Assembly: GCA_951406725.2 (NCBI GenBank)
Contig: OX597818.1
Span: 93,062,001 to 93,126,000, forward strand
Length of the DNA stretch: 64,000 bases
Direction: 5' to 3'
From: Octopus vulgaris
Lineage: Eukaryota
Shown here: piece after piece, positions 18,068 to 62,254 of the stretch
How positions within the stretch are numbered: the stretch's first letter is position 1
How the letters are laid out: each line of letters starts with the position of its first letter
Position numbers and translations under genes: made by a program
The notes under the pieces: generated by a model
What the model saw: only the letters and a program-made list of their open reading frames with translations
What the model was told of the DNA's origin: nothing
Database searches by the model: none

Positions 18068-18290
18068 AACGTTCGTTCACATTTTTTAACACAACCAGAA
18101 CCGACAACTCAAAATCTTCCACGTGATTCTGATACCGAGCCACACTACAACTGCATAAGCAAAGAACACGGCCCACAACTCATGGAAAAACACACCGACC
18201 CTTACCAACTAGACGATATTCTTCGTGTAGCAGTAGCTCCTATGATTATCATTCGTATGGCAAAAGTTGCTTCCCTTCACCGCACACCAT

Positions 18291-18707
18291 ACCTATTTCT
18301 TTACTACCCACAAGGGGCTAAACACAGAGAGGACAAATAAGGACAGGCAAACGGTTTAAGTTGATTATATCGACCCCAGTGCGTAACTGGTACTTATTTA
18401 ATCGACCCCAAAATGATGAAAGGCAAAGTCGACCTCGGCTGAATTGGAGCTCAGAACCTAGCGGCAGACGAAATACCTATTTCTTTACTAACCACAAGGG
18501 GCTAAACACAGAGAGGACAAACAAGGACAGACAAACGGTTTAAGTTGATTATATCGACCCCAGTGCGTAACTGGTACTTATTTAATCGACCCCAAAATGA
18601 TGAAAGGCAAAGTCGACCTCGCCGGAATTTGAACTCAGACGTAGTGGCAGACGAAATACTGCTAAGTATTTCGCCCGGCGTGCTAACGTTTCTGCCAGCT
18701 CGCCGCC
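18291..18707 (-). mobile_element. SINE family B with ~184-bp internal tandem duplication
   Basis: Two near-identical units beginning ACCTATTTCTTTACTA.CCACAAGGGGCTAAACACAGAG. Confidence 0.9.
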
Positions 18708-30346: not shown

Positions 30347-30766
30347 CATCATCATTATTATTATTATTATTTTTACCCCGTATCGCGTCTCCCGAAAGCC
30401 ATCTTCTGAACTGCAAATGGAATATTAATGTCTTGTACAATCTGCTAGGACTACCGTCTCTCGTCTCAAAAACTGACACGCATATTTCTTGTTCGTATGT
30501 GCCCTCTAGCTATCTTTAGTTTCTTGACTCGCTGGCTCCCTGTCAGATTATACCACCGCAGCTTGTGCAGATGGGCCCGAAACGGTTGATTTCCTAGATG
30601 TATATTTTTCCTGTAAGCTTCTTTCCACATCGCACTTGGAAATTTACGGGCTTCAACTTTGATTCTCCGTTCAATTTAGATAAGTCCTATTGTTTACCTG
30701 AACATTTTAGGGTAACTTGTTAGGGTTATATCTACAGGTTTTGTATCGAAATTATAGCCAGCACTA

Positions 30767-31130
30767 GGCGGCGAGCTGGCTGAATCGTTAGCACGCCGGG
30801 GAAAACGCTTAGCGGTATTTCGTCTGCCGTTACGTTCTGAGTTCAAATTCCGCCAAGGTCGACTTTGCCTTTCATCCTTTCGGGGTCGATAAATTAAGTA
30901 CTAGTTACGCATTGGGGTCGATGTAATCGACTTAATCCGTTTGCCTGTCCTTGTTTGTCCTCTCTGTGTTTAGCCCCTTGTGGATAGCTAAGAAATAGGT
31001 ATTTCGTTTATCTTTACGTTCTGAGTTCAAATTCCGCCGAGGTCGATTTTGCCTTTCATCCTTTCGAGGTCGATAAATTAAGTATCAGTTGCGTACTGGA
31101 GTCGATCTAATCGACAGGCCTCCTCCCCAC
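30767..31130 (+). mobile_element. SINE family B with internal duplication
   Basis: GGCGGCGAGCTGGC...GAGTTCAAATTCC head. Core repeated twice. Confidence 0.85.
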
Positions 31131-47839: not shown

Positions 47840-47946
47840 CATATATATATATGCATGCATATATACATATATACATATATGTACATATATACATATATAT
47901 ACATATATACATATATATACATATATGTATATACATATGCATATAT

Positions 47947-48768
<822 letters not shown>

Positions 48769-50287: not shown

Positions 50288-50757
50288 TGTATCAGATTAA
50301 AGATCTTACAACAGTTATATGCTTGGAAAATAATTCTTTCCGATTTAAGAATTAGGTTAGCAATTTTGAAGGCGTGGCACAAATCGATAACCTTAATCTC
50401 CCGTACTTGACTGATGCTTTATTTTATCTATTCTGAAGGAAGGAAAAGCAAAATTAACCTCTGCAGGGTTTGAACTCAGAATGTAAGGAGCCGCAGCAAA
50501 GGCCGGCACTTCACTTTCAGACATTTTTCTGACGCTCGGCCAATTCTACTAGTTTGTTGCCTTATATACTTCTGTGAGGTTAAGAACCTCGCTTTCTAAT
50601 CATGTGGTTTCGAGATCAGTTCCACAGCGTAACACCTTGACCCAAGGTCTTGTGAGTAAATTTCGTAGCTGCAACTGTGTGAAGAATCCCAATGTGTGGA
50701 TCGTTGGCAATTTTTTCCCTCCATCTTCCTTTTCTCTTGGACTCTCCTACGTCTCCT

Positions 50758-50792
50758 GTTTCTGACGAAGTGCTTTGCTCGAAACATAAAAC
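50758..50792 (+). ncRNA. minimal type I hammerhead motif (decayed)
   Basis: GUUU-CUGACGA-a-gugc uuu gcuc-GAAA-CA-UA-AAAC. ACAU is probably a CpG-decayed ACGU palindrome. Confidence 0.5.
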
Positions 50793-51543
50793 TACCTTTC
50801 TTCCCTTTTCTGAGCGTCTGCTAATACTTTGCATGTACCACGACCCCCCGTCCCCCAAGCTTACATCAGATTCCAAAATGCCGTCCCAATAAAAATGTTG
50901 CCCAGAACGGTCCGCTTCCTTCACCCACACCTCCCAGATACATTACTGGGTGGAACTCATTCCGCTTCAGGTTTGACCTCAGCTGATTTCTTCCAAAAAG
51001 AAGGTCAAACTGAAAGAAAGTGGAAGAGAAAGAGTCTGATCAACTTCTGTACAAAGCAAATACTTTATTTATCGATGCTGAAAAGTTAAAATACAAAGTC
51101 GACCTCATTAGAATTTGAACTTAAATTGCAGGGAGGTTTAACGAATACTCCGAATGGAATTATCTCGGTGCTTTAGCAACTCAGCTAAGTTGCCGCGCAC
51201 TTAATAACCCTCATGTCAGATAAAATACCACTCAGGATATTTGAACCAGATAACCCCTCTCATTTGCATAGTTTATCCGCCTTATAAAAGACTAATTTAT
51301 ATCTGTTATCTTTTATCTTTTATTTGTTTCAGCCATTTGACGCGATCATGCTGTAAGTTATAGAGATGTAAACAAACCAACAAGCGGTGTGGGGTGACAA
51401 AGAATCACACACGTGCGCGCGTATGCACACACACACACACACTCACTCACGCACGCACACATGTATGTAAGCATGTATGCATGTATGTATGTATGTATGT
51501 ATGTATGTATGTATGTATGTATGTATGTATGTATGTATGTATG

Positions 51544-58508: not shown

Positions 58509-58987
58509 GTGTGTAAGTTTATATGTATGTATCCGTCTGTATAATAGGTCACTGCACGTATATATACTTAATATTTATTATTTATTTTTTGAGTATGTAT
58601 GTATGTATATGAATAACTGCACGTATATATATTTTATTATTTATTTTTTGAGTATGCATGTAAGTATATGAACATAAGGAGGCGCGTGTGTGTGTGTGTA
58701 TGTGTAAGCATAGGTATAGATATATGTATACTTTTACGCTTGGGTGTACTTATGTGTATATATGGATGCGCGTGTGTGTGTGTGTGTGTGTGTATGGGTA
58801 CGCATGTATATGTGTATGTGTGTGTATGTGTATATGTGTATGTATGTGTGAGTGTGTGCGTTTATGTGTGTGTGTTTGTGTATGTACTTGAGAGGGTATA
58901 TATATATATATGTATATATATATGTATATATATATATATATAGGTATGTATCTGTATGTAGGAGTATATATGTGTGTGTGTGTATGT

Positions 58988-59019
<32 letters not shown>

Positions 59020-59070
59020 TTATTGGTGTATATGTATAGACTAGCATATATGCATACATACACACACGCA

Positions 59071-59124
<54 letters not shown>

Positions 59125-59406
59125 TGCGTGTGTGTATGTATGCATATATGTATGTATGCATGTATATGTGTATGTATATATATGTGTGTAAGTGTGTGCA
59201 TATATGTATATGTAAGTATGTGTGCGCGTATGAGTATGTATGTATGCTTGCACACGTGTATATATATGTGTGTGTGTGTATATATATGGATGCGCGTGCG
59301 TGTGTGCACGTGTATGGGTACGCATGTATATGTGTATGTGCGTGTATGTGTATACGTGTATGTATGTATGTGTGTGCGTATATTTGTATATGTATGTGTG
59401 AGTGTG

Positions 59407-59651: not shown

Positions 59652-59659
<8 letters not shown>

Positions 59660-59735
59660 TAAACAGTAAAAATAATTACAGACATGGACAAGAACATGAA
59701 ACGCCACAGAGACGACACAAGAACCACAGGACGGG

Positions 59736-59882
59736 ACATTCGAAGCCCTCAGTCATCAGTCAAGAACCAGATCATCATAGCAATTTCGGCTGATTAATCT
59801 TGAGATTGCTCCGATATGGGCAGCCCGCCACGGGAAATCTAAGCCAAGTGCATTAGATCCCCTGGAAGAAAGCTTCGAATGT
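59736..59882 (-). ncRNA. non-circularly permuted hammerhead-like ribozyme (family 1, copy 1)
   Basis: GGCUG-c-CCAUAUC-gg-AGCAAUC^UCAAGA-uuaau-CAGCC-GAAA-UUGCU-augau-GAUCUGG-u-UCUUGA-CUGAUGA, closed by a 15-bp outer helix. Confidence 0.7.
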
Positions 59883-60513
59883 ATACAACACGAGGACGGA
59901 AAACGAACGAAGTACACGAACAAAAATACAGAATACGTGACAACAATAAGAATACAAAAACGTAAAAACAATAACGGTAAAAATAAAGTATAAAAAATAA
60001 ACAACAAAACAAAACCAGGACGTAGGACAAGGGTCTTTCGACAGGACGAATTGAGCATGGGGCTGGCTTGTGAAGTTGTGCCTAATGGCCACAGGAGACG
60101 AACAAGTACGTGTTGCTTCAGCGGCTGCTGGAACGAAAAGAGCGTTCAACAGCGTCTAGCGGTCACGTGAGAACAAAAGACAAGAGAAAGGGACAGATGA
60201 AAAGAGAGAGAAGGTGGACGAGGGAGGAGAAGAAAGAGACAGATCGAGGGGGCTGGAGGTGAGAGAGATAGAGAAACGTAGAAGGGGGGGGAACGGATGG
60301 AGAGGGAAAGAAAGGAGGGGGAATAAGGGAGAGAGAGAGAGAGAGAAAGAAAGATTAAGAGTCGTATCAATGCTTGAGAAAAAAATATACTTATCGTATA
60401 AGGACAATTGTGGATACGTAGCCGCCGATTATATAGGTAAACAGTAAAAATAATTACAGACATGGACAAGAACATGAAACGCCACAGAGACGACACAAGA
60501 ACCACAGGACGGG

Positions 60514-60660
60514 ACATTCGAAGCCCTCAGTCATCAGTCAAGAACCAGATCATCTTAGCAATTTCGGCTGATTAATCTTGAGATTGCTCCGATATGGGCA
60601 GCCTGCCACGGGAAATCTAAGCCAAGTGCATTAGATCCCCTGGAAGAAAGCTTCGAATGT
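60514..60660 (-). ncRNA. permuted hammerhead-like ribozyme, copy 2
   Basis: Offset +778. All helices and the core retained. Confidence 0.7.
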
Positions 60661-61291
60661 ATACAACACGAGGACGGAAAACGAACGAAGTACACGAACA
60701 AAAATACAGAATACGTGACAACAATAAGAATACAAAAACGTAAAAACAATAACGGTAAAAATAAAGTATAAAAAATAAACAACAAAACAAAACCAGGACG
60801 TAGGACAAGGGTCTTTCGACAGGACGAATTGAGCATGGGGCTGGCTTGTGAAGTTGTGCCTAATGGCCACAGGGAGACGAACAAGTACGTGTTGCTTCAG
60901 CGGCTGCTGGAACGAAAAGAGCGTTCAACAGCGTCTAGCGGTCACGTGAGAACAAAAGACAAGAGAAAGGGACAGATGAAAAGAGAGAGAAGGTGGACGA
61001 GGGAGGAGAAGAAAGAGACAGATCGAGGGGGCTGGAGGTGAGAGAGATAGAGAAACGTAGAAGGGGGGGGAACGGATGGAGAGGGAAAGAAAGGAGGGGG
61101 AATAAGGGAGGAGAGAGAGAGAGAAAGAAAGATTAAGAGTCGTATCAATGCTTGAGAAAAAAATATACTTATCGTATAAGGACAATTGTGGATACGTAGC
61201 CGCCGATTATATAGGTAAACAGTAAAAATAATTACAGACATGGACAAGAACATGAAACGCCACAGAGACGACACAAGAACCACAGGACGGG

Positions 61292-61438
61292 ACATTCGAA
61301 GCCCTCAGTCATCAGTCAAGAACCAGATCATCTTAGCAATTTCGGCTGATTAATCTTGAGATTGCTCCGATATGGGCAGCCCGCCACGGGAAATCTAAGC
61401 CAAGTGCATTAGATCCCCTGGAAGAAAGCTTCGAATGT
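61292..61438 (-). ncRNA. permuted hammerhead-like ribozyme, copy 3
   Basis: Offset +1556. All helices and the core retained. Confidence 0.7.
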
Positions 61439-61744
61439 ATACAACACGAGGACGGAAAACGAACGAAGTACACGAACAAAAATACAGAATACGTGACAAC
61501 AATAAGAATACAAAAACGTAAAAACAATAACGGTAAAAATAAAGTATAAAAAATAAACAACAAAACAAAACCAGGACGTAGGACAAGGGTCTTTCGACAG
61601 GACGAATTGAGCATGGGGCTGGCTTGTGAAGTTGTGCCTAATGGCCACAGGGAGACGAACAAGTACGTGTTGCTTCAGCGGCTGCTGGAACGAAAAGAGC
61701 GTTCAACAGCGTCTAGCGGTCACGTGAGAACAAAAGACAAGAGA

Positions 61745-61978
61745 AAGGATCCTGGCTATGGCAGCATGTCCATTTGTCTGTCTACTAGAAGGCAAGTACT
61801 CATTCCCGCACGCACACTCATTAGCACGTACATTCACCCATTCGTACACTCATACACATACACGTACGCACGCGTTATATTCATACATACAAACATCTAT
61901 ATATGTATATATATATGTATATATATATATATAGGTATGTATCTGTATGTAGGAGTATATATGTGTGTGTGTGTATGT

Positions 61979-62010
<32 letters not shown>

Positions 62011-62254
62011 TTATTGGTGTATATGTATAGACTAGCCTCCTAAAGTGTAGACACGAATCTGTAGGTACGAGTACGTATGTGTATATACGTGAACGTATGT
62101 AGATGTTTGTATGTATGAATATAACGCGTGCGTACGTGTATGTGTATGAGTGTACGAATGGGTGAATGTACGTGCTAATGAGTGTGCGTGCGGGAATGAG
62201 TACTTGCCTTCTAGTAGACAGACAAATGGACATGCTGCCATAGCCAGGATCCTT
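61745..62254. repeat. ~155-bp near-perfect inverted repeat
   Basis: AAGGATCCTGGCTATGGCAGC...CAAACATCTA (61745-61899) is mirrored at 62100-62254. Confidence 0.9.

Follow-up and report, generated by a model that had tools for sequence, protein, structure and literature searches.

The window, by which we mean the whole 64,000-nt stretch of Octopus vulgaris DNA analysed here, contains an array of non-coding tandem units with one hammerhead ribozyme per unit, and in this hammerhead the stem II partner has been separated from the conserved CUGAnGA and lies upstream of the cleavage block. We have very little doubt that this split wiring is real. The reading we favour, with somewhat more confidence than doubt, is that of a young non-coding Penelope-type repeat whose hammerhead would cut within the unit and whose 778-nt RNA would then circularise and serve as template for more than one round of copying. 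The insertion of two helices between A9 and G10.1 breaks a stated premise of the current hammerhead classification, and Rfam misses the motif. Full-text literature searches, in which subscription journals were mostly not covered, turned up no account of such a wiring. The split wiring also likely explains why Naiad retroelements appeared to be free of ribozymes. A pile-up of 5' ends that is one base wide and rare in second units bears on the hypothesis, put forward in PMC4209133, that PLE tandems are copied from RNA circles, and the motif, at 145 nt, is of a size that would allow cis and trans action to be told apart directly.

The array and its family

The array occupies 59654-61748, its RNA sense is the minus strand, and it comprises 2.69 head-to-tail units of a 778-nt repeat (778 + 778 + 539 nt), which begin at 59654, 60432 and 61210 and differ pairwise at 1-4 positions. 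Unit 1 (59654..60431, 778 nt) is the 3'-most in the RNA, and its fixed 3' end lies directly against a run of (TA)n; unit 2 (60432..61209, 778 nt) joins it head to tail without a seam; unit 3 (61210..61748, 539 nt) is truncated at its 5' end and retains a complete ribozyme. A doubled unit has no stop-free frame of more than 120 codons, and the unit is non-coding. Tandem Repeats Finder was applied with a period limit of 500, which is below the length of this unit. Four contig sets guessed to be RNA covered 26 of 30 bins, and contigs of this kind are uninformative on ends, strand and circles.

Elsewhere in the genome the unit has many close relatives. Of 2578 candidates, the best 40 are scattered across many contigs and nearly identical in sequence. 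The recent amplification that had been proposed in a preliminary description of this DNA is supported. A 34-mer from the 3' end of the unit has 463 exact copies genome-wide, and many of these sit in arrays of 1.x-2.x units at other loci. Copies of the family share one fixed 3' end against (TA)n, are variably truncated at the 5' end, and in many cases exceed one unit and so form partial tandems. This is the pattern of PLEs, and by it the element is a non-autonomous PLE. Because the pattern recurs genome-wide, with arrays elsewhere, the array is not an assembly artefact, the explanation that the preliminary description had named against itself.

The truncated end of the array is followed by filler DNA (61745..62036), of which 61745-61906 is an inverted copy of 62093-62254 (a 162-nt inverted duplication) and 61895-62036 a direct copy of 58902-59045 (a 144-nt direct duplication beside the insertion); there is also a fold-back at 59029-59164. 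Complex filler of this kind points to integration accompanied by template switching on target DNA. At locus L169, a sister subfamily whose unit measures ~722 nt forms an array of 4.4 units (G000:C1:79498900-79506000), and other sister-subfamily units measure 755, 807 and 855 nt, the ribozyme being better preserved than the spacer. At loci L017, L159 and L164 ribozyme-bearing copies stand in inverted back-to-back pairs, as is typical for PLE insertions.

Several other repeats were seen in the window. Dispersed copies of a common short repeat occur in both orientations (18289-18659, 30766-31115 and 1776-2007), and two CUGAnGA...CGAAA motifs in canonical order, at 50752-50800 on the plus strand and ~54772-54720 on the minus strand, are possibly ordinary type I hammerheads of other repeats. 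An older family-D/E copy, 64-73% identical to family E loci, lies at ~47900-48680 on the minus strand, with its GAAA at ~48113; it too has the split wiring, and its helix Y looks damaged.

A hammerhead with split wiring

The three ribozymes, each running on the minus strand from the 5' strand to the 3' strand of helix Y, lie at 59737..59881, 60515..60659 and 61293..61437, with C17 at 59804 (predicted cut 59804|59803), 60582 and 61360. These cut coordinates, like the linkers of 2 and 5 nt described below, had been given in the preliminary description and were confirmed on the minus strand. Ribozyme 2 has one private change, at 60604 in the linker from Z to stem II, and ribozyme 3 has exactly the sequence that is most frequent in the family among the best 40 of 2578 candidate loci. 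The hammerhead core is present (CUGAnGA, GAAA and UH), and across families only N7 and N17 of it vary.

In ribozyme 1, read along the RNA, the 5' strand of helix Y (59881-59868) is followed by hairpin Z (59865-59828), which ends 2 nt ahead of the displaced 5' strand of stem II (G10.1-10.5, 59825-59821). Next come the 5' strand of helix X (59819-59813), a 2-nt linker, the 5' strand of stem III (59810-59806), U16.1 (59805), C17 and the 5' strand of stem I (59803-59798). A 5-nt linker leads to the 3' strand of stem II (59792-59788), GAAA (59787-59784), the 3' strand of stem III and a further linker of 5 nt. The 3' strand of helix X (59773-59767) pairs with 59819-59813 and completes a segment from X through an unpaired hinge to III (59767..59819), with linkers of 2 and 5 nt, that holds blocks S and G. 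Block C (59753..59765) lacks a stem II strand and is made up of the 3' strand of stem I (59765-59760) and CUGAUGA (59759-59753), and the 3' strand of helix Y (59750-59737) begins 2 nt past A9. The strand order is thus S (III-UC^-I), G (II-GAAA-III) and C (I-CUGAnGA), with the 5' strand of stem II upstream, after hairpin Z, and with helix Y beginning right after A9 in the general form of the motif.

All fetched loci were scanned with a descriptor (2.24 Mb, both strands, overlapping loci counted twice), which returned 243 cores against 0 in five local shuffles. The stem II partner is upstream in 214 of the 243 cores, and none of the 243 has a 4-bp partner within 2 nt after CUGAnGA, as an intact block C would. 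The alternative of a partner directly after CUGAUGA, either in a CUGA/UCAG register or as a 5-nt insertion, was also tried and rejected, as it is absent in family B and from the same set of cores. Five sequence families, namely A (that of the window), B, C, D/E and Naiad, hold all six helices with different letters, and compensatory changes at stems I, II and III were counted by family. Families A and B have GGCUG/CAGCC as stem II, whereas C has GAAGG/CCUUC, E has GAGCA/UGCUC and Naiad has GACAC/GUGUC; G10.1-C11.1 is preserved in all four variants. In each family, the commonest forms extend stem III by 4-5 bp past 15.1-16.1. The strand assignment of the preliminary description, in which the upstream GGCUG was taken for stem II, is therefore right, since the partner lies upstream across families and the pairing is conserved with other sequences in C, D/E and Naiad.

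The junctions from Z to II, from Y to Z and from A9 to Y measure 0/0/0 nt in 16 of the 19 full hits of family C and likewise 0 nt in the majority lines of families B and E; in the window's subfamily they are looser, at ~2 nt (2/0-2/2), and hairpin Z directly adjoins stem II in Naiad as well as in B, C and E. The strict descriptor of Y and Z gave 0 full hits among 8 Naiad cores, the Naiad helix Y containing a mismatch and having been read by eye. From this arrangement we infer that Y and Z form a predicted four-way junction that bridges A9 to G10.1 and replaces the bond between them. What had been described as an internal loop at the base of a rod is in fact a multiloop that also contains hairpin Z and is closed by helix Y. 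The rod formed by X and III is not the predicted nested fold of minimum energy, from which the proposed active fold differs; mean pair probabilities are 0.00 for X, 0.22 for III, 0.15 for II, 0.10 for I and 0.96 for Y. A scan of the unit against Rfam gave no ribozyme match at E<=10, and the matches in the flanks were microsatellite-driven miRNA only.

A footprint of the predicted cut

The hammerhead very probably cleaves in vivo, judging by where genomic copies end. At the predicted cut (N17|1.1), 260 copies end exactly, and 2209 read through; nearly all of the 100 listed cut-ending copies continue into a TA-rich flank. The 8 positions that follow served as a control: they yielded 222 matches, and a hand count of the 100 listed among them found 38 true ends. 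This corresponds to ~10.5 ends per neighbouring position, 25-fold below the cut position, and the contrast points to cleavage in vivo at the site that the preliminary description had predicted. A set of 79 insertions of the window's subfamily was also picked without bias, by their 3' end only; 10 of them end within unit positions 141-150, where 1.5 would be expected (p 3e-6), and 2 within 151-180. The pile-up is likely best read as reverse transcriptase (RT) running off a self-cut 5' end. Among the 40 loci examined that end at the cut, 39 are members of sister subfamilies, with 70-89% identity, and not of the window's own. Of 20 Naiad matches, 2 start at the cut with an ambiguity of 2 nt, both at one locus.

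It is very unlikely that the motif is folded but inactive, with ends placed there by RT stalling or by TA microhomology. Such a reading could draw on family C, in which ~3 of the 100 listed matches end at the cut and there is no clear pile-up, and on the many sampled ends that fall at TA-like bases. Against it, the peak at N17|1.1 is confined to one base and falls off immediately past it, and the next template base is G, so TA microhomology is absent at the cut; the core letters, moreover, have stayed constant in five families save at N7 and N17. At L010, L127 and several of the cut-end and control matches, the copy reaches the cut and then repeats 7-20 nt from just downstream, which suggests that RT re-primes after running off the end of the RNA.

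Folding within one unit or between two

Cleavage probably takes place in cis, that is, within one unit. In the proposed fold, Y and Z would stack, the passages from A9 to Y and from Z to G10.1 would be the exchanging strands of the four-way junction, and the junction would hold A9 beside G10.1 without a bond. Helix X would then fold back alongside III and II over the unpaired hinge and clamp the far ends of stems I and II. The preliminary description had held that linkers of 2 and 5 nt make folding back within one unit look strained, so that the apical loop of one unit may dock into its neighbour. In a crude geometry model (rigid ideal A-form helices, a generic core, distance limits and sterics), however, these linkers permitted cis closure in 6 of 37 starts, in which violations were zero or near zero and X ran roughly antiparallel to II/III, whereas a fully paired rod closed in 0 of 32. 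Closure was obtained in 7/36 starts for family B, 11/36 for family E and 10/35 for a loose control. When Y and Z were added, the window came under threshold in 1 of 23 starts, and the best residuals of a model with explicit linker beads, which was unconverged, were 16 for the window, 11 for the loose control, 38 for Naiad and 82 for the rod.

The stronger argument for cis, in our reading of the alignments, comes from comparison of the hinge. Between X and III it is unpaired in every family, ranges from 1/4 to 8/9 nt among full hits and varies freely in C. An unpaired hinge favours cis because folding back requires one and docking does not. As a further point, PMC10085705 describes SGC ribozymes that have a helix equivalent to X and only 3 nt between I and II, and that cleave during transcription at 0.007-0.19 per min; a term search of the main text of that paper found no concentration test. 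These relatives, with the geometric possibility of cis closure, speak against the proposal that the ribozyme fires only in tandem transcripts.

Two readings involve a partner molecule. In one, which we consider improbable, the X-III rod is straight, its apical loop enters the Y/Z/X multiloop of another unit, and two copies are obligatory. The linkers of the window are indeed among the shortest of the five families and gave fewer cis solutions than the long-linker families (6/37 vs 11/36 starts); its subfamily can form an extended alternative rod in the minimum-energy fold, PMC10085705 notes that the crystal structure places X at a large distance from the end of stem III, and dimer-dependent hammerheads are known from newt and axolotl repeats and from PLEs. 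The known dimers need a partner, however, because their stem III is missing or has 1-2 bp (PMC4209133), and with 4-5 bp here the precedent does not carry over, although the preliminary description had relied on it. Obligatory docking would also have permitted a fully paired rod, which no family has, and distances and sterics leave room for closure in cis. The same wiring occurs once in the 3' end of Naiad consensus sequences of ~4 kb, one of them annotated 'no pLTR', and forming 6+5 bp between two closed loops should be no easier in trans. Equally improbable is a four-strand hammerhead in which a four-way junction completes the core and assembly takes place only between two units; if it existed, it would sense RNA copy number and allow release of the 778-nt circle from tandem insertions alone. 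Slightly less probable still is a facultative domain swap, in which the RNA cuts in cis and also forms faster, swapped dimers when it is in tandem or concentrated, with the window's short-linker subfamily shifted towards that state. The short hinge and looser junction of this subfamily would suit a swap, and axolotl retrozymes are described as cutting weakly alone and better as dimers, but a short hinge is present in family B and in Naiad too.

From monomer to array

If cleavage is in cis, as we prefer, two successive cut sites would release a monomer, and the cut positions place the predicted 778-nt cut-to-cut monomers at 59804..60581 and 60582-61359 on the minus strand. Helices II, III, X and Y would still clamp the ends of the monomer together, a state that should favour ligation. 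A PLE endonuclease/RT would then use an internal TATA for priming, 150 nt downstream of the cut. With a cut linear RNA as template, RT would run off at the cut and leave 150-nt inserts, and on a circle it would continue and generate arrays. Since priming would be at a fixed TATA 150 nt 3' of the cut, a cut linear monomer would give only 150 nt, and copies longer than this imply that the junction of the template was intact.

An RNA circle as the template of the arrays is, on the pattern of their ends, the somewhat better-favoured possibility. In the sample of 79 insertions, 12 of the 74 first passes stopped at positions 121-150; for second passes the figure was 1 of 17, and the single third pass also stopped there. 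Among 40 loci with exact-cut ends, 1 (L250) had its end in the second unit, compared with ~20% expected at equal stop chance (p 0.002); if second passes make up only 10%, 1/40 is not significant (p 0.08). Because partly cut linear multimers predict equal stops in later units, the scarcity of second-unit stops favours the circle for most arrays. Units within one array share a haplotype, the three of the window included, and five variants are confined to one sampled locus; this fits a circle and would also fit tandem parents. The proposal of reverse transcription round a circle, made in the preliminary description, thus survives in weaker form, in that the stops support it and the shared haplotypes do not distinguish it from copying of tandem parents.

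A less likely course is that the ribozyme cuts in cis and the arrays nevertheless arise without any circle, either by the copying of linear tandem transcripts that are uncut or only partly cut, or by template jumps of RT. The second-unit stop at L250 is a true one, so that linear multimers were copied too; the arrays at L081 and L092 end 9-19 nt before a later cut, and the copies at L010 and L127 re-copy a few bases after reaching the cut. As a general account of the arrays, however, copying from linear RNA has to contend with second-unit stops below the equal-chance expectation, with the 2209 seamless junctions and with the lack of mixed haplotypes within arrays. We therefore retain the circle as the preferred template.

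Comparison with known systems

It is the ribozyme wiring that connects the family with Naiads. Naiad PLEs target (TA)n (Craig et al. 2021, PMC8557442); that paper reports no canonical hammerhead for Naiads and marks Ovul 'HHR_half_core', and the Naiad_Obim and Naiad_Ovul consensus 3' ends that it provides carry the split wiring. A 20-nt motif of the Octopus Naiad consensus has 212 genomic matches, and 1 of 20 fetched loci with this motif has an RT remnant upstream on the same strand. No intact Naiad ORF was found among the fetched loci, nor any sequence link from the unit to an intact Naiad. Unlike Naiads, the unit of the window has no RT or EN, and its link to them is the shared wiring. None of 30 GIY-YIG loci resembles the unit; the two loci with a family-C ribozyme that were checked closely (L174 and L187) have it on the opposite strand. 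A young PLE with intact 781-aa frames was seen at L177, L182 and L234-L236 and was called Neptune-type from the described linker; its 3' end has only a degenerate hammerhead-like motif in canonical order and several short internal repeats. The element of the window is probably a retrozyme-like parasite of PLEs with a probably active hammerhead.

Hammerheads of types I-III have a circularly permuted order and no core pseudoknot, and the motif of the window departs from them in its S-G-C order and in having no Rfam match. Minimal dimer-acting hammerheads are reportedly the subject of Lunse et al. 2017. Such hammerheads in PLEs, as described in PMC4209133, lie near the 3' repeat of the element and occur in partial tandems, as in the window, but they lack a stable stem III and need a partner to form one, whereas the stem III of the present motif, with 4-5 bp, takes part in a pseudoknot.

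The closest counterpart in fold is the type-SGC hammerhead HRIMA-1 (Eckert et al. 2023, PMC10085705), with which the motif shares the S-G-C order and a short I-II linker, helix X being the counterpart of the SGC 'I' helix that joins the other strands of I and II. Unlike in type-SGC, block C is broken and the 5' strand of stem II lies upstream, with Y and Z bridging A9 to G10.1, a break that PMC10085705 assumes to be impossible; X, moreover, is tied to stem III on both strands, and the host is an animal retroelement. In genomic organisation the array resembles the metazoan non-LTR retrozymes (PMC7229834; Li et al. 2026, bioRxiv 10.64898/2026.07.22.740005), which are likewise non-coding tandems with one hammerhead per unit and for which dependence on PLEs, monomer release and circles are described or proposed, the circle of the window being predicted. 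Those retrozymes carry a type I hammerhead in an RNA of ~170-400 nt, whereas the unit of the window is 778 nt with a rewired ribozyme. The element thus resembles both the type-SGC hammerhead and the non-LTR retrozyme, yet it fails a defining feature of each.
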